This document shows positions 23,024-49,160 of a stretch of 64,000 bases of DNA, one piece after another (position 1 is the first letter of the stretch; each line of letters opens with the position of its first letter). A program made the translations under genes and the position numbers. This DNA is from Yuukianura sp. NJ FZ-2021 (Eukaryota). The notes under the pieces are model-generated. The model had not been told where the DNA came from. It did not search any database and saw nothing but the letters and a program-made list of their open reading frames with translations. The DNA is taken from contig CM102285.1 of the NCBI GenBank assembly GCA_046563655.1, positions 2,542,001 through 2,606,000 on the forward strand, given 5' to 3'.

Positions 23024-26000
23024 ATGCGCTGCCAAATTCAAAATTTTGTTGCCTCGTGGTTAATTTTCATTTTGAATGTTCAAGTTTCTATTTTGCAAGA
23101 TACGGAGCCCGTTGTGCCAGGGGATCCATTAGAACCATTTAAGTTCATGTCGGCTCCACACAAAACACATCATGGCAACTTCATTCGAAAGGCAATGGAC
23201 ATAATTTTGTCAAAAGGACTTTATCAACGCAAACCATTAGAAAAGCTCGTATTTTTAGAACCAGATCAAATTGTGAAGCAATTTGATTTTTCCCTCGGAG
23301 AAGAAGGCGTTAGTCAAGAAGAACTGCTCAAAATAATTGAAAAACTGTTTGAAATTAGCCCTAAACCAGGTCACAGGTACAGACTGAGCAAACGCGTGAG
23401 TGGATTGGATCCACTGGCAGTCGCTGGTGACTGGATGGCAGCTACCATGAGCAATCTTGTCGTTACGTATCAAGTTGCCCCAATCTGGACCATGATGGAA
23501 ATCAAAATGGTTGAATACTTATCAAAACAGATTCAATGGGAAGCGACTGGCGATGGAGTGCCAACGAGTGGGACAGGCGCAGCAAATGCCATGGCGCTGG
23601 CAGTTGCCAGGCATCATGTCGATCCAACAACGAGAGACATTGGATTGTTTCATTATAAACTAAGGCAATTGGTGTTTTATGTTTCTGAGCATGCTTCCAT
23701 TTCATGGAAAACGGCAGCTATTTATGATGGATTTGGACTTGAGGCTATTCATGAAATTGCAGTTGACGAATGGGGCCGAATGGATCCGGGAGAACTCGAT
23801 AGACAAATTGAAAGTGACAAGAATGCTGGCCGTGTACCGGTTATGGTAGTTGCAACGGCGGGGACTCCGAGCTTAGGGGTCATTGACCCTATTGACCAAA
23901 TTGCATCAGTTTGCCAGAAGTTTAAGATTTGGCTACACGTCGACGCAGAACTGGCAGGCGGATACTTATTTAGTCCAGATCCAACGGACAAATTTCGGTC
24001 GAAGCTAGCTGGTATTCAGTGGTAAGTTTTTTAGTAAAAGGGATCTTATTCTAACCAAATTCTGATTCAAAATATAACTTGACAAAATTAAAAGAATTTC
24101 TTAATATATTATTATAAAAATATATTTTACTTTGTAAAACTTTCGTAGGGCGGACTCCGTTTCGATTTCAATGTGGCTGTTCTCCGCTCCATATCCCAAC
24201 TCCATGCTACTCACAAAGAATCCAGACGCACTTCAAAAAACCTTTGGACTCCATGCCCCCTACGTGTTTACTGGAATTGACAACTACAACATGTCATACG
24301 ACATGGGTGACCATACTATCCAAACAAGTCGCAGACCAGAAATTGCCAAAATTTGGTTCGCAGCAGCCCGCGTAAGTTTCCAAAAACTGCACACCAAAAT
24401 TTTGTCTATCCCCAACATCAATTTCAAACAAAAAAAATAGTTAAAAAAAATGCTTTCACATTTTTTGAAATTGTAGGGAGAACAGAACAGTTTTAATTTA
24501 TTTAATGGACAGGACGAAATCAAACTCAAGTTTATAGAATTATTGAAAAAAAGTAATGGATTTCTCCTTTTAAAAACGTCCGAAGATTCAATCCCTTGGC
24601 AAGTTCCGTTTGTAAACTTCTACTACATTCCTCAACAATACCAAGGAGTAGACGAAGCACATCTTGCCGACTTTGCAGAAGTTTTAACCAAAACATCGTA
24701 TGTTATAAAACATGAACTTCAACGGCAAGGTTTAGCTGACATCTCAGTCACTGTATTGCCGCAATCCGACAAACCAGCTTGTTTGACCATAGCGTTCAAA
24801 CATAATCGGCTGAGTGATGCTGAGTTGACTTGGTTAGCAGCAACTATTCAGCAAATTGGTGATAATCCAGCTGTAGCTGGGTTGGCCCATATCAAGGGTT
24901 CAGAAGACAATAGTATAACGGATCCTTATCCTACATTTCCGGCAAAAGAGAAATACTGTGGCATGATGAAAAAGATGCTCGACGTTGCGTACACGGAAGG
25001 AATTTTTTTCAATCGAGACGAGCGTTGTTTTAATTTGAAACAACCGGACTTTTTCAATGACGTTTCAAATTTTGATTTCCACTTACCATATGCTGACGGT
25101 GAAGACCTGTCTAACAAATTTACGGTTTTATTTAAACGTATCATTCAGTATTCACCACATTGGGCACATCCGTACTTTATTTATCAACTTGCAGCAGGGT
25201 AACCTGTTATTTTATGCAAGTTTTCATAAACTCAAAGAAATAAGTTCAAAACTTGAAATTTTTTGAAAAATTGATACAGACTGGATCCTTATACGCTTGT
25301 AGCTGACTATATTGTACCTGTTTTGAACACACCGATGATATCGTACCGTGATGGATCAGCCCCTTTTATGCTAATGGAGAAGGAAGTTGTGAAACAAATT
25401 TTGAAACGAGTTTATAATTCAGAAGAGGGAGATGGAACTATTACAGATGGAGGTTCAATGGGAAATCAAATTGCAATTGCATTGGCAAAATACAATTTTG
25501 CCAAAGAAAATTTTAAAACTTGTGGAACTAGTGCACATGGCGGTAAAAAGTACATCATTTTTACTTCGGAGGACGCGCATTACTCTACCAAAAAAGGGGC
25601 CATGTTGCAAGGCATGTCAGAAAAATATTTAAGCTATAATTTGACACATATGTAGAAACTTTGTTGATCAAAAAATTTTATTCTAGGAATTGGCCAGAAT
25701 TACACAATTGATGTACAGTCAACTGATGTTGGCAGAATGAGGGTTGATAGCCTCAAAATAGCGATAGAAAAAGCCATAACAGAAGGCAACATTCCACTCA
25801 TGATAGTTGTTACAACTGGTAATTTTTTTTGGATTGTTTAAATTTTTTAAATTTATTTAAATTTTTTAAATTTTTAATCTTTTGTTGTTACAAGTGGTTT
25901 ATGAAAATTTTTTTTTTTTAATTTTTGTGCTGTTGTCTTTATCCGCGTCTGTGTTTAAAGGGACTACAATTTACGGTGCGATTGACAACGTTGATGAGAT

Positions 26001-27371
26001 TGTTGAAGTGGCTAAGAAGTACAAGATTTGGGTTCACGTTGACGGAATGTTTGGAGGACTCCTTGTAATGTCGGATAATCAAATTGAAAAATTCCACGGA
26101 ATTGAGCAGTAAGTTAAGTTGCATATCAGAAACTAAATTACAACAACGAAAAAGAAAGAGAAAAATTGCAACATAATTTGCAACATAACAAAAAATAGCA
26201 TCTTTTATATTTTTTTTTATGTAAAAAAAAGGAAACAGAATTTCTGTTTCCAAACCGCTTATTTTTACGTCCATTTTTAGAACGAACTTTTGTGTTCGTC
26301 GTTTTTGATTGCGACGCTTGTGTGGAAAAACTTACTTTTTTCAGAAACAAGTCCGTTTACTTTGTGTACAAAATTTCATGATAATTTCTATGATAAATTG
26401 ATAAGGCAGGCGTGTGAGATTTTTCAAATTTAAAAATGCCTTCTAGTAAAAATAGCCAAAGTGTAACTCGAAAATGTTCTTGCAGGGTAGATTCTTGGGG
26501 AGCAGATTTGCACAAGCTAATGGGATCTGCCATGGTTTGTACCGTTTTAGTAACAAAACACAAAGGCATCTTGCGAAAAACCTTTCAACTTGCTGATGAA
26601 AGTCAAGAAAATGTATGGATAGACAAAACAGACAGCATTCCAGAGGAGTTGAGTTTGGTCGGTAGACATTTGCAGTTGGACAAAAGAAACAACGTTTTCA
26701 AATTTTGGTTGCTCTGGAAAGCAAAGGTTAGCGAAACTATACAATTTTGTGTTTGTTCACTTAAATGTAAGAATTGTACGTTTTTGTACAGGGAAGGAAA
26801 GGCATGGAAGCTCATGTTGACACAATCATGGACAACGCTAACTTTCTAGTTTCCGAAATTAAAAAACGGAAAAATGTTGGATTTGAACTTATACTTGAAC
26901 ATTACGACTTGACCAACATATGTTTTCGCTACATTCCGCCCTACTTAAATCCAGACATAAACAACAAAGTAAATCGCACTAGCGACGATTGGGCAAAACA
27001 AATGGACATGGTAAGCAAAACTGGTAAATTTTTTTTAATTTTTCGGTATAGTTTTTTAAAGCCAAACCCTTATTTTGTCATAGTATACGTTCTCAGTGGA
27101 AAAGGAATTTGTCAAAAACGGCATTACGTCCTTTGTCACACAGAAGCGACATTCTGCCGGCGGCGACAGTCCAATGTTTATAAAATTTGTGATGATGGGA
27201 TCTGCTTTGACGCAAGACGACATTCGATACTTGTTGAATGCCATTGCATTTCACGGAAGTCAAATCAAAGCTGAACCGAGCAGCAGAGCACGGCAAGGAG
27301 CTTTTGACGACTATGTAAGAGGCAAATTTGAGCCGTTTGGAAATTTGCCCAGATACTATCGAGTTGCTTAG
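23024..27371 (+). CDS. Signal-peptide-bearing double-domain group II PLP decarboxylase (GAD/CSAD-like), copy 1, 1100 aa; exons 23024-24021, 24149-24371, 24477-25198, 25280-25611, 25687-25818, 25961-26108, 26486-26726, 26792-27010, 27084-27371
   Basis: Two GAD-like repeats (WLHVDAELAGG and WVHVDGMFGG; DSWGADLHKLMG; VFKFWLLWKAKG; TNICFRYIPP). Exon phases are consistent; intron 4 needs a GC donor. Confidence 0.88.
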
Positions 27372-27913
27372 GATTCCGTTCCAGCGTTATAACGCAAGGG
27401 AAAAGGTTGTTTACATCGAAATTTTGTTTCTCTTTCCTTAACAGGTTATACCATAACTCCCGTTTTAAAAGAATTGGTTTGAATTTTTTTTTGATTCGTC
27501 GACCTCGCGCTATGTAACACAAACAGGATTCGTACAAAATTCCTACAAAATTTTTTTCCACTTATTTTTCAAAAAAGTGAGTTATGGCATAACCTGCTGG
27601 CGCATTTGTATAGCAACCTTGGCAAGGGACGTGTGCATTCCTCTTCTGATTCCTAAACTATTTTACAGAATTTAAAAGTCAAACCAAGTTTATATATCAA
27701 TGTATGCACAAAACCAACTTAAGGTAACTGTTTAAAAAAATCGATAATCAGTGGGTACACTTTTTTTATCCTGTCATTCTACGCTGAGTCATATAAAAAT
27801 GTACACAGGTAATAGGATAACTAAATATGAAAAAAAAACACGTAAATTCTATGACTTAGCTACGGACATCGCCATGCCATTTCCAACAAAATGTTTTCTG
27901 CTGTGATAAAAAT

Positions 27914-28417
27914 CAAGGCAACTAAACAAAAAGACACACCGCATTACTAAGGTAGTCTCACGAGCGGTTTTTTCAAGTTTTTTGGTGAAATTTTTTAGTG
28001 GGGCGGATTGTTTGTTATTAACATTTCTCTGACATCGTTTTCCTTCCCGAAATCGTTGGATGCAGTACAATGTAAATCCGTCCATTGTAACCACCCAATG
28101 CTGCCGATCATCGGACCGGTAGTTTAGCTTGGTTTCAGGATTGGAAATGGAATACTATACAAGCTGGATGCTTATAATTACTAAAAATTCAATCCAACTC
28201 CACGCAAATAGTCCAATATATGTGTCAATTACCCAACACTGTTTACCAGTAGCGCCTCATGGTTACCTCAACCAACCATTTCACGATTTTTTAAAATTCT
28301 TATCCCCTTGGTTACTGGGGCGCACCGCCCCACTAAAAAAGTTTCACAAAAAAACTCGAAAAAACCGCTCGTGAGACTACCTTATAATGCGGTGTGTCTT
28401 TTTGTTTAGTTGCCTTG
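27914..28417. mobile_element. MITE with long terminal inverted repeats (CAAGGCAACTAAAC...), 8-bp TSD ATAAAAAT
   Basis: TIRs of roughly 90 bp; ATAAAAAT at 27906-27913 and 28418-28425; no coding capacity. Confidence 0.9.
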
Positions 28418-28425
28418 ATAAAAAT

Positions 28426-28895
28426 CAAGGCAACTAAACAAAAAGACACACGCGCTTTCTAAGGTAGTCTCACGAGCTGTTTTTTAATTGTTTTTTGCGA
28501 AAGTATATAGTGGGGTGGTATCCAAGGCGATAAGTTCGTGTTGAAGTTGGTTGAAGTAACAATATGTGTTACTTGTAACCAGTGCTCGATATTTGGCACA
28601 AAATCAACTAATTTGCCATTGAGTTGCAATGAATTCGTAGTAGCTATAAGCCTAAAACTTGTATAATTCCATTTTCCAATCCTAAAACCGATTTAAACTA
28701 CAGGTTTGATGAGTGGTTACACTGGGTGGTTACAGTGAATGAATTTGTTTTGCACTCCAACCGAAGGAAAACGTTTGCACAAAAAGGTTAAAAACAAACA
28801 ATCCACCCCGCTATATACTTTCGCCAAAACAACTGAAAAAACCGCTCGTGAGACTACCTTAGTAATGCGTTGTGTCTTTTTGTTTAGTTACCTTG
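28426..28895. mobile_element. Second, diverged MITE of the same family in opposite orientation, same TSD
   Basis: Same TIR; interior is the reverse-complement homologue of 27914-28417; third ATAAAAAT at 28896-28903. Confidence 0.9.
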
Positions 28896-29860: not shown

Positions 29861-32800
29861 ATGGACAATCAGAGTTGGAGAGTTGGAATATTGCTAATTT
29901 TCGTCGCACAATTCCTAATCGCTGACACAAAACGTCCCATTCCACCGGCGGATCCAAAAACACCATTCAAGTTCCAGTCGAGTCCAGCGAAGTCGCTACA
30001 TGGAGATTTCATTAGAAAAGCGATGGACTTAATTCTGGAAAAAGGACTCTATCAAAACAAGTCATTGGAAAAACTTGTATTTTTAGAACCAGATGAAATT
30101 GTGAAACAATTTGATTTTTCCCTCGGAGAAGAAGGCGTTAGTCAAGAAGAACTGCTCAAAATAATTGAAAAACTGTTTGAAATTAGTCCCAAGCCGGGGC
30201 ACAGGTTTAGATTAAGCAAGCGTGTGGCTGGATTGGATCCGTTAGCAGTCGCTGGTGATTGGATGGCGACTACAATGAGTAACAGCCTGCTTGTCTATTT
30301 ATGGGGACCCATTTTTTCGTTAATGGAAATCAAAATGACAGAATACTTATCAAGACAAATTGGTTGGGATAATACTGGAGACGGAGTGTCAACTAGTGGC
30401 GCAGGCGTAGCCAATTCCATGGCACTAGCAGTTGCCATGTACCATGTTGATCCGAAAACGAAAGACATTGGTTTATTTCATTACAAACAAAAGCAATTGG
30501 TCTTCTATGTTTCTGAACAAGCTTCCATTTCATGGAAAACGGCAGCTATTTATGATGGATTTGGACTAGAAGCTATTCATGAAATTGCAGTTGACAAATG
30601 GGGCCGAATGGATCCGATTGAGCTAAATAGACAAATTACACAAGACAAGCTGATTGGGCGTTCACCGGTAATGGTAGTTGCAACTGCTGGAACTCCAGTT
30701 CTCGGGGTCATTGACCCCATTGCCCAAATTGCAGTTATTTGCAAGATTCATAAGATTTGGCTCCACGTTGACGCAGAACTCGCAGGCGGGTATTTATTTA
30801 CCCCCAATTCCCATAATAATTTTAGGACCAATAAGCTACCTGGCATTCGTTGGTGAGCGAGAGTTTGGTTACACTTTCATGATTGTTTTTTTAATTTGAA
30901 AATTCAAATTTCAAATTCAAGAAAAACAATTTTACCAATTAAAATAACGCAAACTTGGAATAAACTTTAGTTTAACTATTTTTTTTTTCAAAAAGGGCAG
31001 ACTCCATTTCCATTTCGATGTGGCTCTTCTCAGCTCCATATCCAAATTCAATGCTGCTCACCCAAAATCCGGATGCACTTCAAAAGAGTTTTGGGCTGCG
31101 CTCAACCTACGTATTTACTGGACTAGAATTATACAAATTTATTTACGACGTAGGTGACCACACTATACAAACCACCCGCAGACCTGAGATAGCCAAAATT
31201 TGGTTTGCAGCAGCCCGCGTAAGTCACCGAAAGTTACAAATTTACTGTCTGGATCCCGCAGCTCGAGTAAATCGATTTGACTATACTCGTGACATTCAAT
31301 TGCTAAAAGAAAATAGTTTCCTAAAGTTTTGTCAAAATATGTAAATGAAGTGGATAATTGTAATTTTTAGGGCGAGATAAACAGTGATGAGTTGTTTAAA
31401 GCGCAGGACGATATCAAACGCAAGTTTCTCGTTTTATTGGGCAGTATCCCAGGATTTGTTCGAGTAAAAGCGGCGTATGACGCCATTCGTCTCCAAGTTC
31501 CTCTTGTGTCATTTTACTACATTCCGAAAGAAGTCCGAGAAAAAACAATTGACACCGAATTCACGAAAACTGTTTCAGAAAGAATGCGTGCAGTGAAGTA
31601 TCAACTGCAGCGACGTGGGTTAGCAGACGTTTCAATTTCCAAAATTCCACACACTCCAGACTGCTTGACAATTGCATTCAAAAATTCAAGACTCAGCTCA
31701 GCAGAACTAAATTGGTTGGTGACAACTATCGCAACACTGGGTGAAAACCCCTCTGCGGAGGTCGTTCCCTACAATCAAAACCCAGCAGACGCAAATACAG
31801 AAAAGTTTCCAACGTTTCCATCGCAACAAATATATTCTACGCTGTTGGAGAGCATACTAAATATTTCTTACGACGAAGGTATATTTTTCAGCCGAAAACA
31901 AAAGGTTTTTGATTTCAAACAACCAGGAGCTTTGATTACTGATGAACATTCCCATTTCTTCGATTTACCTCATAATGGAACCAATGTGCACAAGAAGTTT
32001 GAGGAATCGTTTAAATATATTATTAAGTACACGACACATTTGGGTCACCCCTACTTCATTTACCAGCTGGGTTCCGGGTAACGGCTAACTTTCTCTTGCA
32101 ACAGTCAAATCTGTAGAGCGAAGCGAACGAAAATATGCATTTCTCACAAGCAACTTTTTGGGTATTTCCGCAGCTTCTCAAAAGAAATTAAATTCACAAA
32201 ATTCCCAAAATGGTAATATGGCATTGCATTTGAAGCGTTCAGTTGAAAAAGTTTGTAACCAGAGAAACAAATACGAGGTGTAATGTTTTTCGTTCACCTC
32301 ACTGTATACCAAACAAATTTGAAAACTGTTGTTTTATAATACCATTTTCCAAATGCAGATGAATTTTTTGTTCCAGACTGGATCCTTATACGATTGTTGC
32401 CGACTACATAGTACCAGTTCTGAACACTCCGATGATATCGTATTATGATGGATCAGCTCCATTTGTGTTAATGGAAAAAGAACTTGTAAAACAAATGTTG
32501 AAACGAGTTTACAATTCAGAAGAGGGAGATGGAACTATTGCGGATGGAGGTTCAATGGGAAATCAAATTCCAATTGCAATGGCCAAGTATCACTTTCACA
32601 AAGAAAACTTTAAAAACTACGGAACTAGCGTAAATGGAGGCAAGAAATATATTGTTTACATGTCTGGAGACGCGCACTACTCTACAAAAAAAGGAGCCAT
32701 GTTCCAAGGTTTAAGCGTCAACTTCTGGAATTGTAAGGAATATTATTAACAAGCATTGTTTACTTTTAGGGATTGGTCTGAACCATACAATTGAAGTAGA

Positions 32801-34133
32801 GTCAAACAACATTGGTCAAATGAGAGTTGACAAACTAAAGGAATCTATTCAAAAAACCATAACTGATGGAAACATTCCACTTATGATTGTAGTAACGACT
32901 GGTAATTTTTAACAAAACGATAAATATTTAAAAAATATTACTTAAAAAACATCTTTTTATCACAGGAACAACAGTTTATGGTGCGGTAGATCCGGTTCTT
33001 GAAATTGTTAAAGTTGCAAGGGAATTTAGAATTTGGGTTCACGTTGATGGAATGTTTGGGGGACTAGCAGCACTGTCGGACACTCATATAAAAAAATACA
33101 AAGGAATTGAACTGTAAGATTAATTTAATAAGGTTTATTATTATTTATCTTATTTTTATTATATTTATTTATCTTTATTAATAAACGTATTCTCTAAAAT
33201 GCATTAACTAACACAACGGTAATTATCAATCAGTCGATTTGTAATTAATGGCGCACGTTATTTGAAACGTTTTGTGACAGGTCCGACTCTTGGGGAGCTG
33301 ATCTACACAAACTGATGGGATCTACTATGGTTTCCACTATACTGATAACTAGACACAAAAACATACTGAGGCGTACATTCCAGCTTCCTGATGAAAGCCA
33401 GGAAATTGATTGGACAGGACAAGGATCAAGTATTCCAGAAGACATGATTATGCTCGGTAGACATGCGCAGTTGGACAAAAGAAACAGCGTATTCAAATTT
33501 TGGTTACTCTGGAAGGCCAAGGTTACGTAAATTTCAGAGATTTCAGATGATACTTACGCTTACTGTCCTTTTTAAAAAAATGAATGTTTTTGAATCACAG
33601 GGCCGCAAAGGTTTGGCAGCACACGTAGACAAAATCATGAGCAACAAAGACTTCCTAATTGCCGAAGTTCGGAAACGAAAACGCCGAGGTTTCGAACTTG
33701 TTCTGGATGATTTCGAATTGACTAACGTCTGTTTCCGGTACATTCCGCCATACTTGAATCCTTATATCAATGATAAAGTTAACCGATCTACGGAAGCGTG
33801 GGCCAAGGAAATGGACATCGTAAGAATAAAAAAAATCTTTACCGTCAATTCCTTTGAAAATGGTCAATTTTTCTGAGGAAATCCTAATTTCCATTACTTT
33901 TTCAATAGTTCACGTTCTCTATCCAGAAAGAATTTGTAAAGAACGGCATTATTTCGTTTGTGACTCAACGGAGACATTCTGCAGCCGGCGACAGTTTTCG
34001 GTTTATTAAATTTGCATTGATGGGGTCGGCTATTACACATGACGACATTCGATTCCTGCTGAATGCAATTGAGTTCTACGGAAAGAAAATCAGAATTAAC
34101 ATTTTTTTGAAATGTAATATCGGACGTCGATAA
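29861..34133 (+). CDS. Double-domain secreted-type PLP decarboxylase, copy 2 (9 exons, shortened C-terminal tail)
   Basis: Same exon layout and motifs as copy 1; DSWGADLHKLMG; last exon from 33909 ends at TAA 34131-34133. Confidence 0.85.
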
Positions 34134-35454: not shown

Positions 35455-38400
35455 ATGTGCCTTCAGACTTTGAGATTTGGTGCTCTGTTACTCATTTTCA
35501 TCGCCCAATTCCTAACCGTTGCCACAAAACGATTCATCCCACCAGCGGATCCAAAAACACCATTCAAGTTCCAATCGAGTCCAGTGAAGTCACTACATGG
35601 AGATTTCATTAGAAAAGCGATGGACTTAATTCTAGAAAAAGGACTCTATCAGAACAAGTCATTGGAAAAACTTGTATTTTTAGAACCAGATGAAATTGTG
35701 AAACAATTCGATTTTTCCCTCGGAGAAGAAGGCGTTAGTCAAGAAGAACTGCTCAAAATAATTGAAAAACTGTTTGAAATTAGTCCCAAGCCGGGGCACA
35801 GGTTTAGATTGAGCAAGCGCGTGGCTGGATTGGATCCGTTAGCAGTCGCTGGTGATTGGATGGCAACTACCATGAGCAACAACTTGCTTGTCTATCTATG
35901 GGGACCCATTTTTTCGTTAATGGAAATCAAAATGACGGAATACTTATCAAGACAAATTGGTTGGGATAATACTGGAGACGGAGTGTCAACTAGTGGCGCA
36001 GGCGTAGCCAATTCCATGGCACTAGCAGTTGCAATGTATCATGTTGATCCGAAAACGAGAGACATTGGTTTATTTCATTACAAACAAAAGCAATTGGTTT
36101 TCTATGTTTCTGAACATGCTTCCATTTCATGGAAAACGGCAGCAATTTACAACGGATTTGGACTTAATGCTATTCACGAAATTGCAGTTGACGGATGGGG
36201 CCGAATGGATCCGATTGAGCTAAATAGACAAATTACACAAGACAAGCTGATTGGGCGTTCACCGGTAATGGTAGTTGCAACTGCTGGAACTCCAGTTCTC
36301 GGAGTCATCGATCCCATTGATCAAATTGCTGCAATTTGTAAGACGCATAGAATTTGGCTCCACGTTGACGCAGAGCTCGCAGGCGGATATTTATTCACAC
36401 CCAATTCACACAATAATTTCAGAGCCAATAAGCTATCTGGCATCCGCTGGTGAGTAAACTTTGGTTTAAATTTTCATGATTTTTTTTTAATTTGAAGACA
36501 GAAAAACTTGCAGTGTAACATTTGAACAAAAACATTAACTGACCAGTGTAAAGATTAATTTGATTTTTTTTTTAAAGCGCGGACTCTATTTCCATTTCGA
36601 TGTGGCTCTTCTCCGCTCCATATCCAAATTCAATGTTGCTCACTCAAAATCCAGATGCACTACATAAGACATTCGGGCTGCGCTCAACCTACGTATTTAC
36701 TGGACTAGAATTATACAACTCTACTTATGACGTAGGTGACCACACGATTCAAACGAGTCGTAGACCAGAGATAGCAAAAATTTGGTTTGCAGCAGCCCGC
36801 GTAAGTCACCGAAAGTTACAAATGTACTCTCAGTCCGTCTAGATTCAGCAGCGCGAGTAAATCGATTTGACTAGACTCATGACGCTCAATTGAAATAGAA
36901 GGTAGTCTGTTAAAGGTTTCAAAATAGGTAAATGAAGTAAACTATTTTTAATTTTTAGGGCGAGCTAAACAATGATGAGTTGTTTAAAGCACAGGATGAT
37001 ATCAAACGCAAGTTTCTCCTTTTATTGGGCAGTGCTCCAGGATTTGTTCGAGTAAAAGCGGCGTTTGACGCCATCCGTTTTCAAGTTCCTCTAGTGTCGT
37101 TTTACTACATTCCGAAGGAAGTCCGAGAAAAAACAATTGACACCGAATTCACTAAAACTGTTTCAGAAAGAATGCATGCAGTAAAGTATCAACTGCAGCG
37201 GCGTGGGTTAGCAGACGTTTCAATTTCTCAAGTTCCAAACACTCCAGACTGCTTGACAATTGCATTCAAAAATTCAAGACTCAGTTCAGCAGAACTAAAT
37301 TGGTTGGTGACAACTATCGGTTCACTGGGTGAAAACCCTTCTGCGGAGGTCGTTCCTTACAATCAAAGCTCAGCAGACGCAAATACCGAAAAGGTTCCAA
37401 CCTTTCCATCGCAGCAAATTTATTCCAACCTGTTGAAGGCGATGCTGAATATTGCTTACGACGAAGGAATATTTTTCAGCCGAAAACAAAAGGTTTTTGA
37501 TTTCAAACAACCAGAAACTTTGATTAATGGTGAACATTCCCATTTCTTCGATTTACCTCATAATGGAACTAATGTGCACAAGAAGTTTGAGGAATCGTTC
37601 AAATATATTATTAAGTACACGACGCATTTGGGTCACCCATACTTCATTTACCAGCTGGGTTCAGGGTAACGGCGGACTTTATTTTGCAAGAGTCAAATAT
37701 TTGGAGCGAAACGAGCGAAAATATACACACACTAATGTACTTTTTTTTTGTTTATTTTGGCAACTTATCAAAGAAAAAATTTCACTCAATGCCCAAAATT
37801 GTAACTTTCTCAAGTTTTCTCTTGATAAAGTTGTGTTGTTGCCGCTGTAGTTTAAATGGTAAACGTGGAAAGAGGGAGATGTGTAGTTTTCGTGCACCTC
37901 GCTGTATGCCAAACCAATATGAATACCTATTCTTTTGTAATTCTATACTTTAAAAGCTGAAGAATTCTTTGTTTTAGACTGGATCCTTATACGCTTGTTG
38001 CTGACTACATTGTACCAGTTTTGAACACTCCGATGATATCGTATTATGATGGATCAGCTCCATTTGTGTTCATGGAAAAAGAACTTGTAAAACAAATGTT
38101 AAAACGCATATACAACACAGAAGAGGGAGACGGAACTATTGTAGATGGAGGTTCAATGGGAAACCAAATACCGATTGCAATGGCGAAGTATTACGTGCAC
38201 AACGAGAATTTTAAAAACGAAGGTTCAAGTGAAAATGGAGGCAAAAAGTACATTGTTTACATGTCTGGAGACGCTCACTATTCCAGCATAAAAGGAGCAA
38301 TGCTACAAGGTTATAACTATAAATTTCCATGTTTAAAATTTATTGAAGAATGGAGTCTCTTTAGGAATTGGTAAAATGCATGCAGTTCAAGTAGAGTCAA

Positions 38401-39835
38401 ACAATATTGGTCAAATGAGGGTTGGTAAACTAGAAGAAGCTATTCAAAAGACGATAAGAGACGGAAACATTCCACTGATGATTGTAGTAACGACTGGTAA
38501 TTTTGATTTAGTATTTTATCTTCATGAGCACATACATCCTAAACAGTTTTGCTGCAGGAACAACAGTTTATGGTGCCATTGATCCGGTTCAGGAAATCAT
38601 CACAGTCGCCAAGCAATACAAAATTTGGGTTCATGTTGATGGGATGTTTGGAGGACTAGCAGCAATGTCAAACACTCATTTCAAAAAATTCAAAGGAATT
38701 GAGCTGTAGGTTTTATGTACTATTATATTATATAATAACAATTATTACACCATTTGTTTTTAGAAATTCAGAAATTTAGAAACCTATTTAATACGCATAG
38801 TACACTACGTTAAAGCTCTGCGAAACATACAACACATTATAACTAGCGGTAAAACTGCTCTTTTAGGTCAGACTCTTGGGGAGCTGATGTGCACAAACTG
38901 ATGGGATCTACTATGGTTTCTACTATACTGATAACCAGACACAAAAACATGCTGAGGCATACTTTCCAGCTTCCTGATGAAAGTCAGGAAATTGACTGGA
39001 CAGCCCAAAGAGCTGGTACTCCAGAAGACATGAATTTAGTTGGTAGGCATGCGCAGTTGGACAAAAGAAACAATGTATTCAAATTTTGGTTACTCTGGAA
39101 GGCAAAGGTTATGCAAATTTCAGAAATTTCAGATGATGCATACTATACTTTTTAACAAATGAAATTTTTTGAAAAACAGGGTCGCAAAGGTCTGGAAGCA
39201 CACGTAGACAAAATCATGAGCAACAAAGATTTCCTAATTGCCGAACTTCGGAAACGAAAACGCCGAGGTTTCGAACTTGTCCTGGATGATTTCGAATTGA
39301 CCAACGTTTGTTTCCGTTACATTCCGCCATACTTGAATCCATATAGCAACGATAAATTGAACCGATCTTCCGAAGATTGGGTCAAGGAAATGGACATCGT
39401 AAGAATAAGAAAACAGTATTAACAGTCAATTTCTTTGAAAATTGTCAGTTTCAAAGAACAAATTCTAATCTCATTCCACTTTTTCAATAGTTCACGTTCT
39501 CTATCCAGGAAGAATTTGTGAAGAACGGCATTATTTCATTTGTGACCCAAAGGCGATATGCAGCTTCTGGTGACAGTTTTCTGTTTATCAAATTTGCAAT
39601 GATGGGATCTTCTTTGACGCACGACGACATTCGATATCTGCTGGATTCAATTGAATTCTATGGAAAGCAAATCCGAGTTACTAAGCAAAATGGAGTTGTA
39701 GCAGCGGATGTCAACAAATGCGAAAAAGAAGATGATCCATTTGGAAATATTCTCAAATTCTATTCCGTTCACCAAGTCTGTAGAAATAATTCTTGCATGG
39801 TGTCTAACCTCTCGTGGAAAAATGGCTATGAATAA
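35455..39835 (+). CDS. Double-domain secreted-type PLP decarboxylase, copy 3 (9 exons)
   Basis: ORF pieces 35407-39835 are colinear with copy 1; DSWGADVHKLMG. Confidence 0.87.
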
Positions 39836-40310
39836 GAAATGCAATAGGTCACACTCAACTTCATGCTTTCATGTTACCTTTGTCGTCATTTCGCTGTCAA
39901 ATTCAAAAAGAACTCACATGTAATTTATATTATTATAAAAGTTTTAGTTATGAAACTAATTCATATTCATCCAATTGTGGGCTTCGGGGGCTGTCAAAAC
40001 TTCTGCTTTTCTAATGTCACTTTACAGTGACATGCTATAAATCAAGCTACTCTATGACCAGAAATAACAAAGCTACCTTCCACAACGACTACTACTATAT
40101 TTTCCATATTTTATTTGAAAAAAAAAACTTGCTAATCCAACATATTGAAAGCCAGAGTGTCTGTCGCATACAGGTCGTGCCTTTGACAAAAATAATACTT
40201 TTTCTATCAAGGTAAAAATAAATTGTAAAAACAGAGCAATTGTTCAATCGAGATTTTCAATTAGTAGTAACATACTAAACATTTCTGCCTACGTTTGTGT
40301 TAAACTGAAG

Positions 40311-43300
40311 ATGCGCAAGCATATTGGTTTGAGATTTGGCGCTCTGTTGCTAATTCTTATCTCGCAAGGTCAAATTGCGGTTTTGGAGGACACAGAACCC
40401 ATTCCGCCAGAAGAACCACAAAAACCGTTCAAGTTCATGTCGGGTACGGCCAAGCAACTACATGCAGATTTCATTAGAAAGGCTTTAGACATAATTCTGG
40501 AAAAAGGACTATTTCAGAGCAAGCCATTGGACAAACTTATATTTTTCGAACCAGATGAAATTATAAGAAAATTTGATTTTTCCCTCGGAGAAGAAGGCGT
40601 TAGTCAAGAAGAACTGCTCAAAATAATTGAAAAACTGTTTGAAATTAGTCCCAAGCCGGGGCACAGGTTTAGATTGAGTAAACGCGTGGCTGGATTGGAT
40701 CCATTAGCAGTTGCTGGTGATTGGATGGCAACTACCATGAGTAACAACGTCGTCAGCTACTTGGTTTCACCTATCTGGACCCTCATGGAGATCAAAATGA
40801 CGGAGTACTTGTGCAAACAAATTGGATGGAAAAAGACTGGAGATGGAGTATCAACTAGTGGCGCAGGCGTAGCCAATTCCATGGCTTTGGCAACTGCTAT
40901 GCATCATGTCGATCCTAAAACAAGAGACATTGGCTTATTTCATTATAAACAAGACCAATTAGTGTTTTATGTTTCAAAGCATGCTTCTCTCTCATGGAAA
41001 ACAGCAGCAATTTATGACGGATTTGGACTTGGGGCTATTCATGAAATTGCAGTTGACGAATGGGGCCGAATGGATTCGATTGACTTGGGGAAGAAAATTG
41101 TACTTGACAAAAAGTTCGGGCGAATACCAGTTATGGTAGTGGCAACAGCGGGAACTCCGATTTTGGGAGTCATTGACCCCATCGATAGAATTGCATCAGT
41201 TTGCCGCAAATATAAAATTTGGCTTCACGTCGACGCAGAACTGGCGGGCGGATATTTATTTACCTCAGACACAAATGATGATTTTCGGTTCAAGTTAAAC
41301 GGCATCCGAAGGTAAACGGCAAACACTGCGTACACAGCTTTGGAGCAAAATTTTTGATGTTGTTCAGAACCAGGTTTAAGGCTATTGTGGTCACCATTTT
41401 TGTTTTATTTAAAAAGAGCGGACTCGGTTACAGTTTCTATGTGGCTCTTCTCAGCGCCATACACAAACTCAATGTTGCTAACTCGGAACCGTGATGCACT
41501 TCAAAATACGTTTGGACTACACCCCACATACGTTTATACGGGAGTCGACACATACAACATGTCATATGACAGAGGCGACCATACTATTCAGACGAGTCGC
41601 AGACCAGAAATTGCGAAAATTTGGTTTTCAGCTTCACGGGTAAGCAGAGGCTCCATTTACTTTTTATATACCATGCAAACGTATCTGTACAGTTACAGCT
41701 TACATACTTTTGGCGGCAATTACGGTTTGGTTTGATTACTCAACTTATGCAAACGTTTTTTTTTTAATTCCTAGGGAGAGCAGAACAGCCATGCATTGTT
41801 TAAAGCACAGGACGAAATGAAGCGCGAGTTTATAAATATATTGGAAACTACACCAGGATTTGTGCTGGTCAAAACGTCGACGGCGCCAATCGCTCACCAG
41901 ATTCCACTAGTATCATTCTACTACGTTCCAAGAGACTTCACCGACCGAGGAAAGTGTATCGGACACTTCAAACGATTAGTTGGCAAAAGGATGCGCGAGG
42001 TGAAGTACCAACTTCAACGACGTGGATTAGCTGATGTTTCAATTTCCAAAATTAAGCATACTCCAGACTGCTTGACAATTGTGTTCAAAAATGGAAGGCT
42101 TACCTCGGCAGAACTGAATTGGCTAGTTAGAACTATTCGGACACTGGGAGAGAATCCATTTGCGGAAGGAGTTACATACGATCAAAATCCAGTAGACGCA
42201 AATACAGGAAATTATCCAACATTTCCATCGCAACAAATCTACGCCGACTTGATGAAATCCATGCTAAACATTGCTTTTGACGAGGGAATTTTCTTTAGCC
42301 GCAAGGAAAAAGTTTTTGATTTCAGAAAACCAGAGCTTTTGAGTAACCGTGAAAATTTTGATTTCAATTTGCCGTATAATGGGACAGACTTGGACAGAAA
42401 GTTAAAGGAGTCATTCCGATCTATTATATATTATTCGCCTCATTGGGCTCATCCGTACTTCATTTACCAATTGGGAGCAGGGTAACAAAGTCATATTTTA
42501 CCACTAACACGGGACAAATTATGCTAAACAAAGAAGCTTGGAAATTTTTTGATTTTATTTGATTTTACATATTTCCTTTTCAAAATTAATCTCTTGTCGA
42601 AAATGTTTAGTTTGGATCCGTATACGACCGTTGCCGACTACGTTGTACCAGTTTTGAACACTCCGATGATATCGTATTACGATGGATCAGCTCCATTTGT
42701 GTTCATGGAGAAAGAACTTGTCAAACAAATGTTAAAACGAGTGTACAATTCAGAAGAAGGAGATGGAACTATTACAGATGGGGGTTCTATGGCAAATCAA
42801 ATGCCAATTGCAATGGCCAAGTACAACCTTGACAAAGAAAACTTTAAAAATCACGGAACTAGTGTAACTAGAGGCAAGAAGTATATTGTGTACTTGTCGG
42901 CCGACGGCCACTACTCTACAAAAAAGGGAGCCATATTGCAAGGTTAAAAAAAGAAATTTGAGTGGTTCAGTTTCCAAAATATATTGAAATATTTAACATC
43001 CTTTAGGAATTGGTCAAAACCATACCATTGAAATAGAGTCAAACAATATTGGTAAAATGAAAGCTCATAAGCTAAAGAACGCTATTGAAAAAACAATAGC
43101 AGATGGAAACATTCCACTTATGGTGGTCGTAACTACTGGTAATTGTATTGTTAATTTACCAATTTGACTAATTTACATTATCTAACAATGTCGTATGATA
43201 TTTATGGCAATGTTTGTTAATTTCTTACTAGTTTATTTTAGGAACGACAATATATGGTGCAATTGATCCTGTACATGAAATAGCCAAAGTTACGAGGCAT

Positions 43301-44644
43301 TACAAAGTTTGGCTTCATGTTGATGGAATGTTTGGAGGACTTATCGTTTTGTCAGATACGCATGCCAAAATTTTCCGCGGAATTGAGCTGTAAACTATAA
43401 CTTATTTGTTCTAGTACATAACTTAATTTGAGTTAGAATTTATTAGATGAGTACTGTAATTTACAGAACGGATTCCTGGGGAGCAGACTTGCATAAATTA
43501 ATGGGATCGAATTTCGTATGCACAATTTTAGTGAGCAAACACAAGGACATCCTGAGGCATACGTTCAAGCTTTCTGACGAAAGTCAGGAAGATGATTGGA
43601 GAGACCGAAAGAATGGCATAACGGACGACTTGAATTTGGTTGGTAGACATACGCAGTTGGACAAAAGAAACAATGTGCTTAAATTTTGGTTACTCTGGAA
43701 AGCAAAGGTTAGTTAAAACCAAGGTTCGTAAACAAAAAAATGTTTTTCTACAACAGGTTGCCCAAAAAACGTGGGTTTTCAATTTTATGCAAAAATGTTC
43801 AAAAATGAAACCGGTTGACCTCCGTTTCTATGAAAATTTTTTTTCACTGTAGTCGTAGCCCACCAGTTGGGGAAAAAGTTATACAGAAAAAATTTAAACA
43901 AAAGACAACAACATTTTTCGAAACCCTGGGTTATTGGACCACCTGTTGTAGGAAATACAACTCGGTTGTCAAGGAACCTTGGCTTACGTTGAAATTTCGA
44001 TTATACGAAATGAATTTTTTGAAAACGCAATGAATTTTTTTAAATATAGGGCCGGAAAGGCTTGGAGGCACATGTAGACAAAATCATGAGCAACAAAGAT
44101 TTCCTAATTACCGAACTTCGAAAACGGAAAAACGAAGGTTTTGAGCTCGTCCTGAATGATTTTGAATTGACAAACGTCTGTTTCCACTACATTCCGCCAT
44201 ATTTGAATCCAGATTTCAATGACAACGTGAATCGATCTTCCAAACAATTGGGTTTGGAAATGGACAAGGTAAAGTGACGTGAAACTGGCACAAGCGGGTG
44301 GATTTAAAAAAAAACAATCCATTACATATAATTTTTGTACTTCTCAACAGTTTACGTTCTCCCTTGAAAAAGAATTTACGAGGAACGGTATAATTTTATT
44401 CGTTACACAAAGGCGAAATTCCGCTGCTGGAAACAGTTTGTTGTTCATCAAATTTGTTATGATGGGATCTGCTCTGACTCACAACGACATTCGATTTATG
44501 CTGGATGCCGTTGCATACTACGGAAGTAAAATCATAGTTGGTCGAAGCATCATGAGATCGGAGGTTAGTGACAAATGTAGCATAGAAAAATTCGATCCAT
44601 TCGGAAACCTGCCCAAATATTTTCCTGTCGGTCAAGATTTATAA
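40311..44644 (+). CDS. Double-domain secreted-type PLP decarboxylase, copy 4 (9 exons)
   Basis: Colinear with copy 1; DSWGADLHKLMG. Confidence 0.87.
43742..43958. mobile_element. Small MITE-like element in intron 7 of decarboxylase copy 4
   Basis: Imperfect TIR ctacaacaggttgcccaa...ttggaccacctgttgtag; related termini at 56561-56762; this intron is longer than in the paralogues. Confidence 0.65.
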
Positions 44645-45133
44645 AATACCTCGGATTGCAAATAAAACCAATTTTGTAACACTTTAGCAAGTGAAACATA
44701 AAATTGCACTTTTTTCGCGTAAAAGGACAATATGATTTTCGTTGGAGAAGCTTCAAGTGCATAATTTACAATTACAAAGGCGATCATAATTGAATGACGT
44801 GGGTGAATAAAAAAGTTCAAGGAGAATGAGTTAAACTACCAGTTTAATGTGCTTGTTAAAGTTGCGCGCTTGTATACGAGTGTCTCCTGGCTGTAACTGA
44901 ATGACGCATCAGGAGGACAAACAAAATAGATATTTATCAAATTGCTTTGAACACAAAAAACCAACAACAAATATTTTTTACACTTTTGAAGTTCATTTGA
45001 CAAGAATTCGGTGTTTTTATGTTGAGTTGTGCTTTGAAAACAGGCTTTTGGATAACATAAGATTTTTGTAACGTCGACTACTAAAAAGGCATCCTTGACG
45101 GAGTTCTGTGAAACTTTCATGTTTAGAGTGAAG

Positions 45134-48100
45134 ATGCACAATCGGAGTTTGAGATTGGGCGTCGTTGTGCTAGCATTCATCGCGCAAGTCAGATTCGTTG
45201 TCTCGCAAGACGCAAAACCCCCAGTTCCACCAGTGGATCCAAAAACACCATTTAAGTACCAATCGATTCCATCAAAGACACTTCATGGAGACTTTATTAG
45301 AAAAGCGATGGACTTAATTCTGGAAAAAGGACTCTATCAGAACAAGTCATTGGAAAAACTCGTATTTTTAGAACCAGATGAAATTGTGAAACAATTTGAC
45401 TTTTCCCTCGGAGAAGAAGGCGTTAGTCAAGAAGAACTGCTCAAAACAATTGAACAACTGTTTGAAATTAGTCCCAAGCCGGGGCACAGGTTTAGATTGA
45501 GCAAGCGTGTGGCTGGATTGGATCCGTTAGCAGTCGCTGGTGATTGGATGGCGACTACAATGAGTAACCTCCCGCTTGTCTATTTATTTGGGCCAGTTTT
45601 TTCATTAATGGAAATCAAAATGACGGAATATTTATCAAGACAAATTGGTTGGGATAAAACTGGAGATGGAGTGTCAACCAGTGGCGCAGGCGTAACCAAT
45701 TCCATGGCACTAGCAGTTGCCATGTACCATGTTGATCCGAAGACGAAAGACATTGGTTTATTTCATTACAAACAAAAGCAATTGGTTTTCTATGTTTCTG
45801 AACATGCTTCCATTTCATGGAAAACGGCAGCAATTTATGATGGATTTGGCCTTGAGGCTATTCACGAAATTGCAGTTGACAAATGGGGCCGAATGGATCC
45901 GATTGAGCTAAATAGACAAATTACACAAGACAAGCTAATTGGGCGTACACCGGTAATGGTAGTTGCAACAGCTGGAACTCCAGTTTTAGGGGTCATCGAT
46001 CCCATTGCCCAAATTGCAGTTATTTGCAAGATTCATAACATTTGGCTTCACGTTGACGCAGAACTCGCAGGCGGATATTTATTCACACCCAATTCACACA
46101 ATAATTTTATAGCTAATAAGCTTCCTGGCATCCGTTGGTGAGCGAGCGTTGGTTACATTTTCATGAACTTTTTTTTAGTTTGAAAATTCAAATTTCAAAT
46201 TCAAGAAAACACTTTTAACATTCAAAAAAACGCAAACTTGGAACAAACATTAGTTTAATTATTTCTTTTTCAAAAAGGGCGGACTCCATTTCCATTTCGA
46301 TGTGGCTGTTCTCAGCTCCATATCCAAATTCAATGCTGCTCACTCAAAATCCAGACGCACTACATAAGACATTTGGGCTGCGCTCAACCTACGTATTTAC
46401 AGGACTAGAATTATACAACTCGACTTATGACGTAGGAGATCACACTATTCAAACGAGCCGTAGACCAGAGATAGCCCAAATTTGGTTTGCAGCAGCCCGC
46501 GTAAGTCCGTGAAAGTTACAAATTTACTCGTGACATTCAATTGGCAAAAGAAAGTAGTGTCTTAAAGTTTTGTCAAAATATGTAAATGAAGTGGATATTT
46601 TTAGGGCGAGATAAACAGTGATGAGTTGTTTAAAGCGCAGGACGATATCAAACGCAAGTTTCTCGTTTTATTGGGCAGTGCTCCAGGATTTGTTCGAGTA
46701 AAAGCGGCGTTTGACGCCATCCGTTTTCAAGTTCCTCTAGTGTCATTCTACTACATTCCGAAGGAAGTCCGAGAAAAAACAATCGACACCGAATTCACGA
46801 AAACTGTTTCAGAAAGAATGCATGCAGTAAAGTACCAACTGCAGCGACGTGGGTTAGCAGACGTTTCAATTTCCAAAATTCCACACACTCCAGACTGCTT
46901 GACAATTGCATTCAAAAATTCAAGACTCAGTTCAGCAGAACTAAATTGGTTGGTGACAACTATAAGAACACTGGGTGAAAACCCATCTGCTGATGGTGTT
47001 ACTTGCAATCAAAACCCAGCAGACGAAAATACCGAAAAGTTTCCAACGTTTCCATCCCAGCAAATTTATTCCAACCTGTTGAAGACGATGCTCAATGTTG
47101 CTTACGACAGAGGAATATTTTTCAGCCGAAAACAAAAGGTTTTTGATTTCAAACAACCAGAAACGTTGCTTAATGGTGAAGATTCCCATTTCTTCGCATT
47201 GCCTCATAATGGAACTAATCTGCACAACAAGTTTGAGGAATCGTTCAAATCTATTATTAAGTACTCGCCTCATTTGGGTCATCCCTACTTCGTCTACCAG
47301 CTTGCTTCCGGGTAACGGCTAACTTTATTTCGCCACCGTCAGTAATATTTAGAGCAAAAAAACGACTTACATAGTTTTCGTGCAACTCACTGTGTGCCAA
47401 TAAATAAGTTTAAAAACCTATTGATTTGTAATGCTATTTTTTAAACGCCCAGAAATTTTTGTTCCAGACTGGATCCTTATACGCTTGTTGCTGACTACAT
47501 TGTACCAGTTTTGAACACTCCGATGATATCGTATTATGATGGATCAGCTCCATTTGTGTTAATGGAGAAAGAACTTGTAAAACAAATGTTAAAACGCATT
47601 TACAATACGGATGAGGGAGACGGAACTGTCTTGGATGGAGGTTCAATGGCAAACCAAATGTCGATTGCAATGGCGAAGTACTACGTCGATAAAGAGAATT
47701 TTAGAAACAAAGGCGTTAGTGCAAAAGAAGGCAAGAAGTACATTGTTTACTTCTCTGCAGATGCCCACTACTCTACAAAAAAAGGAGCCATGTTTCAAGG
47801 TTATAACTCAAAATGCTCATGTTTAATATTTATTGAAAAATAGCGTTTCTTTAGGACTTGGACAAAGCCATGCAGTTGAAGTAGAGTCAAACGATATTGG
47901 TCAAATGCGTGTTGATAAGCTGAAAGAAGCTATTCAGAAGACGTTAACGGACGGAAACATTCCACTAATGATTGTAGTAACGACTGGTAATAAAATATTC
48001 TAGCTTCATGAGCACGTGCATACAAAACAACTTTATGGTTGCTTGCTACTTTGTTGCAGGAACAACAGTTTATGGTGCCATTGATCCGGTTCAGGAAATT

Positions 48101-49160
48101 GTCACAGTCGCCAGACAATACAACATTTGGGTTCATGTTGATGGGATCTTAGGAGGACTAGCCGCAATGTCAAACACTCATATAAAAAAACACAAAGGAA
48201 TTGAGCTGTAGGTTCTCCAAATTATTTATTAGACATTTTTTGCCAAGTTTGTGTTATATGCTTATACAGTATACGATACATAATTAACTCAGCGCAACAT
48301 AGAGCACACTACAACTCACGGATAACCTAATGTTATAGATCGGACTCTTGGGCAACTAATACACACAAGCTAATGGGATCTACGATGGTTTGTACCTTAT
48401 TGATAACTAGACACAAAAACATCCTGAGGCATACTTTCAAGCTTCCCGATGAAAGTCAGGAAATTTACTTGACAGCACAACACGATGGTATTCCAGACGA
48501 CATGAATTTGGTCGGAAGACAAGTGCAATTGGACAAAAGAAACACCGTTTTTAAATTTTGGTTGCTTTGGAAAGCAAAGGTTACTTAAAACAAAGACATT
48601 TAGAATATGCGGGATGAATTCTTTTATAACCAGAATTTTTTTAAAATTTAGGGTCGCGAAGGTTTGGAAGCACATGTAGACAAAATCATGAGCAACAAAA
48701 ATTTTCTAATTGCCGAACTTCGGAAACGGAAACGCCAAGGTTTCGAGCTTGTCTTGGACGATTTCGAATTGACAAACGTCTGTTTCCGGTACATTCCGCC
48801 GTACTTGAATCCATATATGAACGATAAAGTGAACCGATCAACTGAACATTGGATTAAGGAAATGGACATTGTAAGATTAAAGAAAAGTTTAACTTTTTTG
48901 AGGAGGGTCTTTTTTATAGAGCAAATTTTAATTTCCGTATACTTTTTCAACAGTTTACATTTTCGCTTCAGAAAGAATTTGTGAAAAACGGCGTGATTTC
49001 ATTCATAACCCAACGGCGACATTCGGCTTTAGGTGACAGTTTTCTGTTTATCAAATTTCCAATGCATGGATCAGCTTTGACACACGACGACATTCGATAT
49101 CTGCTGAATGTAATCGAGTTCTACGGAAGTCAAATTAAAGTTAATCGTGGGGGACTGTAG
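45134..49160 (+). CDS. Double-domain secreted-type PLP decarboxylase, copy 5 (9 exons, early TAG in tail)
   Basis: Colinear with the other copies; DSWATNTHKLMG; HVDGILGG; stop TAG at 49158-49160. Confidence 0.85.

Follow-up and report, generated by a model that had tools for sequence, protein, structure and literature searches.

We analysed a 64,000-nucleotide stretch of the Yuukianura sp. NJ FZ-2021 genome (assembly GCA_046563655.1, contig CM102285.1, positions 2,542,001 to 2,606,000 of the forward strand), hereafter the window, which carries an array of five tandem nine-exon genes at 23024-49160 on the plus strand. The genes are intact and encode proteins of 1070-1113 amino acids (aa), each composed of two halves that belong to the GAD/CSAD-like Pyridoxal_deC enzymes, a group of decarboxylases that use pyridoxal phosphate (PLP). 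A repeat search of the window resolves the array into five direct copies of a 4.4-kb unit with spacings of 6828, 5597, 4865 and 4823 bp. The region is eukaryotic in structure, a mosaic of short open frames interrupted by GT-AG introns, and the gene models were built by hand: stop-to-stop open reading frames (ORFs) were taken, all frame-compatible GT..AG pairs were listed, and an intron pair was retained only if every one of the five copies had it in the same phase and at the corresponding place in the protein. The resulting models are the following.

23024-27371, plus strand: copy 1, 1100 aa; exons 23024-24021, 24149-24371, 24477-25198, 25280-25611, 25687-25818, 25961-26108, 26486-26726, 26792-27010, 27084-27371
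29861-34133, plus strand: copy 2, 1072 aa; exons 29861-30852, 30996-31218, 31371-32077, 32377-32708, 32770-32901, 32966-33113, 33281-33521, 33601-33819, 33909-34133
35455-39835, plus strand: copy 3, 1113 aa; exons 35455-36449, 36578-36800, 36959-37665, 37978-38309, 38365-38496, 38558-38705, 38867-39107, 39180-39398, 39491-39835
40311-44644, plus strand: copy 4, 1098 aa; exons 40311-41311, 41417-41639, 41775-42481, 42611-42942, 43007-43138, 43242-43389, 43467-43707, 44050-44268, 44351-44644
45134-49160, plus strand: copy 5, 1070 aa; exons 45134-46137, 46278-46500, 46605-47311, 47468-47799, 47855-47986, 48060-48207, 48339-48579, 48652-48870, 48954-49160

No internal stop occurs in any of the five models, 39 of the 40 introns have GT-AG ends, and all eight intron positions and phases are conserved across the copies, whose proteins are 65-88 % identical to one another. 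The bounds given by an earlier, sequence-only reading of this DNA, 23024 and 49160, coincide exactly with the first ATG of copy 1 and the final stop of copy 5. The donor of intron 4 is GC in copy 1, the most diverged copy (at 25612), and GT in the remaining four; either the intron is of the GC-AG type or splicing is defective there.

The Pfam family PF00282 matches exon pieces of both halves. In half 1 the matches fall on exon 1 (2.2e-39) and exon 2 (6.3e-09) and cover profile positions 1-326; those in half 2 fall on exon 4 (1.1e-07) and exon 6 (1.1e-09), with a further match to exon 8 (2.6e-05) below the curated cut-off, and the three half-2 exons together cover profile positions 53-374. The junction between the halves lies within exon 3: half 1 ends there with its C-terminal small domain, and about 25 linker residues lead over to the N-terminal segment of half 2.

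36959-37665, plus strand: junction exon (exon 3) of copy 3
24477-25198, 31371-32077, 41775-42481 and 46605-47311, plus strand: junction exon of the other copies

Exon 3 is a single unbroken frame of about 236 codons across the junction in every copy, and the same junction exon is found in a related metagenome contig, L002. Because this exon carries half 1 through the linker into half 2 without a break, in the five copies as in L002, the fusion of two halves in one gene is real. Aligned over 438 aa, the halves of copy 3 share 24.7 % identity (E 4e-31). Both half-1 introns match two of the six half-2 introns in aligned position and phase: one site lies between GI.. and.DS (phase 2), the other between ..R and G in half 1 and between ..K and G in half 2 (phase 0). 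Since the halves have these intron positions and phases in common, we conclude that an intron-bearing gene was duplicated in tandem and then fused.

We estimated the ratio of nonsynonymous to synonymous substitution rates (dN/dS) by the Nei-Gojobori method for the 10 paralogue pairs of window copies. It ranges from 0.13 to 0.23 in half 1 and from 0.13 to 0.25 in half 2; the linker gives 0.18-0.71 in nine pairs, one pair being saturated. Both halves are under purifying selection and equally constrained, and half 1 is not decaying. These values, well below 1 in both halves, argue against the array being an artefact in which two adjacent genes were misjoined or the copies are decaying pseudogenes. 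Such an artefact could be suspected from hand-made models derived from DNA alone, from the GC donor of copy 1 and from the shortened C-terminal tails of copies 2 and 5; it is nevertheless hard to reconcile with a continuous junction exon in five of five copies, with five models of about 1100 codons that lack any internal stop, and with the same structure in an independent contig (about 54 % identity) and in gene models of 907-1103 aa that databases list for other species. We consider it highly improbable.

In group II decarboxylases a His that stacks on the PLP ring and an Asp directed to the pyridine nitrogen have established roles. The sequence-only reading had described half 1 as lacking the Schiff-base Lys and the PLP-stacking His and keeping the catalytic loop, and half 2 as keeping HYS, HVD and HK with an unrecognisable loop (DESQE). 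The motifs that it quoted occur in all five copies, with the variants QASIS in copy 2 and HASLS and YVYTG in copy 4, and both descriptions hold for every copy. Half 1 invariably has Ser at the stacking-His position, keeps the Asp, has no Lys in the ADS..SMWLF segment, and retains the loop Tyr with the D-x-G-D-H-T-I-Q-T-x-R-R stretch. Half 2 invariably has (A/G)HYS, HVDG and HK, and DESQE at the expected Tyr site. The positions concerned are listed here.

36121-36123, plus strand: half 1 Ser codon at the PLP-stacking His position, copy 3 (other copies 23696-23698, 30524-30526, 40986-40988, 45809-45811)
36579-36611, plus strand: half 1 ADSISISMWLF of copy 3, which replaces the ..NPHK.. Schiff-base motif and has no Lys
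36690-36692, plus strand: half 1 catalytic-loop Tyr, copy 3 Tyr370, equivalent to GAD67 Tyr434 (other copies 24261-24263, 31108-31110, 41529-41531, 46390-46392)
38276-38278, plus strand: half 2 PLP-stacking His, copy 3 His742 (other copies 25578-25580, 32675-32677, 42909-42911, 47766-47768)
38895-38897, plus strand: half 2 Schiff-base Lys of HK, copy 3 Lys856 (other copies 26514-26516, 33309-33311, 43495-43497, 48367-48369)

The residues were also aligned with solved structures by phmmer against the PDB. Exon 1 matches GAD65 (2okk, 5.4e-42) and also GADL1 and CSAD; S-E-H-A-S-I-S of half 1 aligns to S-E-H-S-H-F-S of GAD65, with the ring-stacking His replaced by Ser and the Asp of H-V-D kept. 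Exon 2 matches GADL1 at its catalytic loop (1.2e-07), where the Tyr and Y-D-x-G-D..I-Q-x-S-R-R-P are conserved. On the half-2 side, H-K of exon 7 aligns with H-K of GAD67, the loop has no alignment at all, and a comparison with DfoJ puts Glu or Ser in the Tyr column.

The sequence-only reading had proposed a search for tandem Pyridoxal_deC proteins, and such proteins were indeed found. A HMMER scan with exon 1 gave 4818 matches at E ≤ 0.001 among 1.84 billion representatives. The list is headed by proteins of 1103, 1065 and 907 aa, each matched in two or three stretches. Two of these are from Allacma fusca and carry the label 'Glutamate decarboxylase' in UniRef, and a profile search found a third Allacma protein and a 1072-aa protein of Orchesella dallaii that is 64 % identical to P0005. 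The five database relatives are P0005, P0162, P0007, P0161 and P0008, four of them from named springtails (Allacma fusca, Orchesella dallaii). The contig L002 has the same nine exons with all eight intron positions and phases and yields a 1094-aa model of about 54 % identity; a second metagenome contig, L001, holds a partial relative with the half-1 pattern and its Tyr kept. The relatives align end to end with the window proteins. P0001, from a separate homology search with exon 1, is an unrelated aminotransferase-decarboxylase fusion and not a relative.

The active-site positions were compared in 11 full-length tandem proteins, namely the five window copies, L002 and the five database proteins. 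The stacking His is found in none of the half 1s and in every half 2, and the Asp in all 11 of both. The Schiff-base Lys is present in 3 of 11 half 1s (the Allacma proteins), and His-Lys in 11 of 11 half 2s. A complete PLP site therefore exists only in half 2, in every member. The catalytic-loop Tyr shows the opposite distribution, being kept in six half 1s (the five copies and L002) and in no half 2, and the D-x-G-D..Q-T-x-R-R stretch that follows the loop is conserved in 11 of 11 half 1s and intact in 0 of 11 half 2s. Tyr retention in half 1 is confined to the clade of the window proteins, where it extends to all seven half 1s when L001 and L002 are counted; the six half 2s of this clade all keep His, Asp and Lys.

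To extend the comparison beyond these residues, we scanned the 38 alignment columns whose conservation reaches 85 % or more across 113 single-domain homologues of 440-560 aa, a set without the tandem proteins and P0012. At least 9 of the 11 tandem proteins keep 27 of the 38 columns in half 1 and 30 of the 38 in half 2. Columns lost in half 1 alone are G157 (phosphate loop), H196, T253, G282, H309, K310 and N115; those lost in half 2 alone are Y339, R362, G143 and P125; R169 and R471 are lost in both. The half-1 losses thus correspond to the PLP pocket, and the half-2 losses centre on the trans-acting loop. A quick maximum-likelihood tree, with SH-aLRT as support, places the eleven half 1s in one clade (99) and groups the eleven half 2s (86) with the 477-aa protein P0012 as their sister; all halves come together with a support of 100. 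Because the half 1s form one clade and all halves another that includes it, the tree indicates a single old duplication that probably preceded the split of these lineages.

Each gene probably specifies a pseudo-heterodimer in one chain, built from a GAD/CSAD-like group II PLP decarboxylase and having one shared site. What the sequences show directly is the fusion, the pattern of residues and how it is conserved, and the selection acting on each half. The rest we infer: pairing of the halves within the chain, from a structure model and by analogy with known enzymes, and also one PLP per chain and decarboxylase chemistry. In the mechanism that we propose, the old internal duplication of an intron-bearing gene would have joined two protomers head to tail, and the two halves would fold on each other like the subunits of an ordinary dimer. 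Of the two symmetric active sites one would survive. Its PLP pocket (phosphate loop, stacking His, Asp and His-Lys) would lie in half 2, and the closing catalytic loop with the proton-donating Tyr would come in trans from half 1. The reciprocal site would be dead on both sides, half 1 being without His and Lys and half 2 without the Tyr loop.

The premise, taken over from the sequence-only reading, is that group II decarboxylases form dimers in which the loop Tyr acts on the partner's site. For GAD this agrees with PMC3546353, which describes an obligate dimer where both monomers build each active site and where each Lys405-PLP site receives its catalytic loop, with Tyr434, in trans from the partner.

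For a view of how the halves may pack, AlphaFold2 was applied to the Orchesella homologue P0162, which is about 35 % identical to the window proteins. MAFFT misplaces exon fragments of the window and single-domain homologues. The folding alignment has 124 rows, and its single-domain rows all lie on half 2. The model has a mean pLDDT of 86.0 and a pTM of 0.90, with low confidence only at the termini, in the linker (about 531-569) and in the half-2 loop (899-921). Foldseek against the PDB matches one half each time and gives no information on packing; it places CSAD, GADL1 and GAD67 on one half with a TM of 0.90-0.94 on the target, including CSAD 2jis_B on half 2 at 0.94. With VIA-align, GAD67 (3vp6_A) falls on residues 567-1068, which is half 2 (Z 28.2), and 8zpi_B on residues 13-522 with Z 26.6; half 2 is also where the PLP-binding beta subunit 1wyt_B of the glycine decarboxylase P-protein falls (Z 15.1). 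The human P-protein (6i33_A) aligns over residues 18-1072, with 742 residues aligned (Z 19.8, rmsd 3.7 Å). As this is one rigid superposition over both halves, the P0162 model packs its halves as P-protein does.

A different pairing would have half 2 associate with half 2 of a second chain, forming two Tyr-less sites, and half 1 with half 1, the latter serving as a non-catalytic pseudoenzyme with a regulatory or scaffolding role. Fold-type-I enzymes readily form homodimers, and the half-1 Tyr is gone in 5 of 11 members, so that its donation is not universal. This pairing would however leave no purpose for a post-loop stretch that is conserved in every half 1 and degenerate in every half 2, since a dead half would then meet a dead half. 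It also fits poorly with the short linker of the window proteins (about 25 residues) and with the P0162 model, where a pTM of 0.90 accompanies a P-protein-like arrangement of the halves. The recurrence of the complementary pattern in two other tandem proteins, P0144 and P0047, is a further argument against it, and we regard pairing between chains as unlikely.

Both were found among the exon 1 HMMER matches. P0144 is a 946-aa DOPA-decarboxylase-like protein from a metagenome. Its half 1 is without His and Lys and has an N-P-S-Y-L loop; its half 2 has His and Lys, and the loop is deleted. From residues 474-781, 284-339 and 824-929 of P0144, which combine the half-2 body with the half-1 loop, phmmer rebuilds DOPA decarboxylase (7xin). 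P0047, a 979-aa uncharacterized protein of Ptychodera flava, has the mirror-image order: its first half is the live PLP half, with His and Lys but without the Tyr, and its second half carries the Tyr together with Asn and with Q-I where H-K would be expected. Its duplication is young, because the halves are still nearly identical over long stretches. Unlike the window proteins, P0144 and P0047 belong to the aromatic-amino-acid decarboxylase branch and not to GAD/CSAD, and their duplications are independent. Our literature search found no paper on P0144 or P0047. Three independent fusions with the same complementary outcome constitute the strongest comparative support for one composite site per chain.

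Several observations weigh against the pseudo-heterodimer with one shared site. The half-1 Tyr is replaced by Val or Leu in P0005, P0162, P0007, P0161 and P0008, which have no loop Tyr in either half. Tyr donation can therefore not be the family-wide reason for keeping half 1, and these members either have a different chemistry or keep half 1 for other reasons. The three Allacma proteins retain the half-1 Lys, as D-K instead of H-K; together with the Asp present in 11 of 11 half 1s, this makes some ligand binding by half 1 possible. The column N115 is kept in 0 of 11 half 1s and in 7 of 11 half 2s, a pattern that would contradict the scheme if this residue acts in trans. The structure model is that of a homologue with about 35 % identity whose half 1 is covered by only 5 of the 124 alignment rows, all tandem proteins, and AlphaFold may have learned its packing of the halves from homodimers of this fold. 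Finally, the model of copy 1 depends on one GC-AG intron. The intramolecular dimer with one composite site that the sequence-only reading had put forward thus has computational support from the residue pattern, the conservation and recurrence of that pattern and the homologue model, but not as a scheme in which Tyr donation holds for the whole family.

Two further features of the proteins bear on the reaction and its location. The first is the Arg of the ..FFR.. motif in the C-terminal domain (column R471), which presumably binds the acid group of the substrate. It occurs in 95 % of the single-domain relatives and in 0 of 11 half 1s and 0 of 11 half 2s. In half 2 of the window's clade this column is Lys, and the CSAD alignment shows the same replacement in P0162; with Arg changed to Lys, the substrate need not be Glu, Asp or cysteine sulfinate. 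The second is a hydrophobic N-terminus, found in the five copies, L002 and L001 and absent from the four complete database homologues.

35455-35529, plus strand: N-terminal hydrophobic segment of copy 3, resembling a signal peptide or membrane anchor

The best 12-residue Kyte-Doolittle mean is 2.27-2.97 in the six full-length models and at most 1.30 in the four database homologues. Judging from these segments, the proteins of the window's clade may be secreted or lumenal.

These features could also be read as signs that the proteins are pseudo-dimers but not simple decarboxylases, acting instead as aldehyde synthases or decarboxylation-dependent transaminases, catalysing another PLP reaction or using an unusual non-acidic substrate. 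The loss of the R471 Arg from both halves, set against its 95 % conservation in the 113 single-domain relatives, and its replacement by Lys in half 2 of the window's clade would fit such a role, as would the signal-like N-terminus, which is unusual for the family. So would the relatives without any loop Tyr: according to PMC3546353, GAD65 that lacks the loop Tyr makes succinic semialdehyde and not γ-aminobutyrate (GABA), and the comparison suggests that the Tyr-less springtail relatives may have an altered chemistry. The window's clade, on the other hand, has each decarboxylation residue once (Tyr in 7 of 7 half 1s; His, Asp and Lys in 6 of 6 half 2s), and the closest solved relatives are all decarboxylases. 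For these reasons we hold a departure from decarboxylation to be improbable in the window proteins.

GAD65/GAD67, CSAD and GADL1 are the closest known systems in sequence and fold, and their Lys, His, Asp and loop-Tyr positions align with those of the window proteins. They are homodimers of chains of about 500 aa with two equal sites, whereas the window proteins are two fused, diverged protomers with one complete site, R471 replaced and a hydrophobic segment at the N-terminus.

The closest parallel in design is the P-protein, whose split alpha-beta form is known from some bacteria and archaea. GLDC is described in PMC7259800 as an unusual fold-type-I enzyme that consists of one chain of more than 1000 aa or of an alpha-beta pair; its parts are homologous, the N-terminal part has Gln for the active-site Lys, and the C-terminal half binds PLP. 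Like the window proteins, it is a fold-type-I PLP decarboxylase of about 1000 aa with two homologous halves, the dead half first. The P-protein layout of two fold-type-I halves with Lys only in the C-terminal half is found in the residue pattern of the window proteins, and the P0162 model has the dimer-like packing. The window halves differ in that they match PF00282 and have GAD65, GADL1 and CSAD as their closest solved relatives; the structural alignment with 6i33_A shows 12 % identity. When the exon pieces were scanned with Pfam, PF00282 and PF00266 were the only families listed, with no match to the GDC-P profile. P-protein works with lipoyl-H-protein and nothing suggests such a partner for the window proteins; and it is only in group II decarboxylases that a trans-acting Tyr loop is lost in this complementary way. 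The comparison shows that the window proteins probably resemble P-protein in the way they work and are not members of its family, and the difference in family implies an independent origin.

A second parallel is serine palmitoyltransferase, whose LCB1 subunit is without the PLP lysine. In a coccolithovirus the LCB1 and LCB2 subunits are fused in one gene, according to PMC5371807. This is likewise a fold-type-I PLP enzyme with two unlike subunits in one gene; by its description it is set apart as an alpha-oxoamine synthase that joins two long-separate genes and involves no internal duplication. The claim that the architecture is undescribed was consequently overstated, as both GLDC/GcvP P-protein and the single-chain serine palmitoyltransferase are described single-chain pseudo-heterodimers. 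A literature search, with subscription journals and supplementary files outside its scope, yielded no publication that deals with tandem Pyridoxal_deC proteins or with these springtail genes. The design is known in other families; what is apparently new is a convergent, P-protein-like pseudo-heterodimer within the GAD/CSAD branch of the group II decarboxylases.

Fold-type-I PLP enzymes are as a rule obligate homodimers with two shared active sites. Once the protomers are fused, one of these sites can be abandoned, and each half then loses exactly what it contributed to that site; this amounts to a natural complementation experiment. The complementary loss would confirm, by sequence alone, the trans action of the catalytic loop. 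Such proteins would also offer a built-in asymmetric scaffold for dissecting the two subunit roles, which is impossible with a homodimer, and the Tyr-less relatives are candidates for altered chemistry. The five paralogues, with their signal-like N-termini and apparent confinement to springtails, point to an unexplored amine metabolism.

Copies 1, 3 and 4 and L002 share a short C-terminal tail motif behind half 2, (F/A)-F-G-N-(L/I)-(P/L)-x-(Y/F). The models of copies 2 and 5, whose C-termini are shorter, are without it, as are the database homologues.

27300-27371, plus strand: tail motif region of copy 1
39700-39835, plus strand: tail motif region of copy 3
44560-44644, plus strand: tail motif region of copy 4
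7440-7548 of contig L002: tail motif region

The genes that flank the array include a large type I polyketide synthase (PKS), which begins 5 kb downstream of the decarboxylases and runs off the end of the window, and an ORF resembling a non-ribosomal peptide synthetase (NRPS) at the opposite end.

900-2351, minus strand: NRPS-like AMP-binding ORF
54089-54757, plus strand: PKS KS
57126-62057, plus strand: PKS KS C-terminus with AT-DH-ER-KR
62417-64000, plus strand: PKS ACP with terminal NAD_binding_4 reductase

It is conceivable that the five tandem decarboxylases, each with a signal peptide and a single site, belong as secreted or lumenal enzymes to a biosynthetic locus that the animal itself encodes. 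Flanked by the NRPS-like gene on one side and by the highly reducing PKS, with its terminal reductase, on the other, they would supply an unusual amine for a metabolite specific to springtails. Beyond this case, self-fusion of a group II decarboxylase might drive complementary decay to one site as a rule. We offer this combined proposal as a speculation that is quite unlikely to hold in full.

A 216-codon open frame at 49682-50332 on the minus strand, just past copy 5, has no Pfam match. The upstream part of the window contains a cation-channel gene and a group of EF-hand genes.

6363-9218, plus strand: exons of an Ion_trans cation-channel gene
16448-16954, 18746-19351, 20392-20877 and 21460-21942, minus strand: four tandem single-exon EF-hand genes of about 160-200 aa

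Between these, at 9503-15870, long uninterrupted ORFs encode a complete riboflavin pathway. To our knowledge animals do not normally make riboflavin, and for this reason the cluster may have been horizontally acquired.

9503-10585, minus strand: RibD-like deaminase/reductase
10737-11609, minus strand: riboflavin synthase
12183-12785, plus strand: lumazine synthase
13960-15870, plus strand: fusion of DHBP synthase, GTP cyclohydrolase II and lumazine synthase

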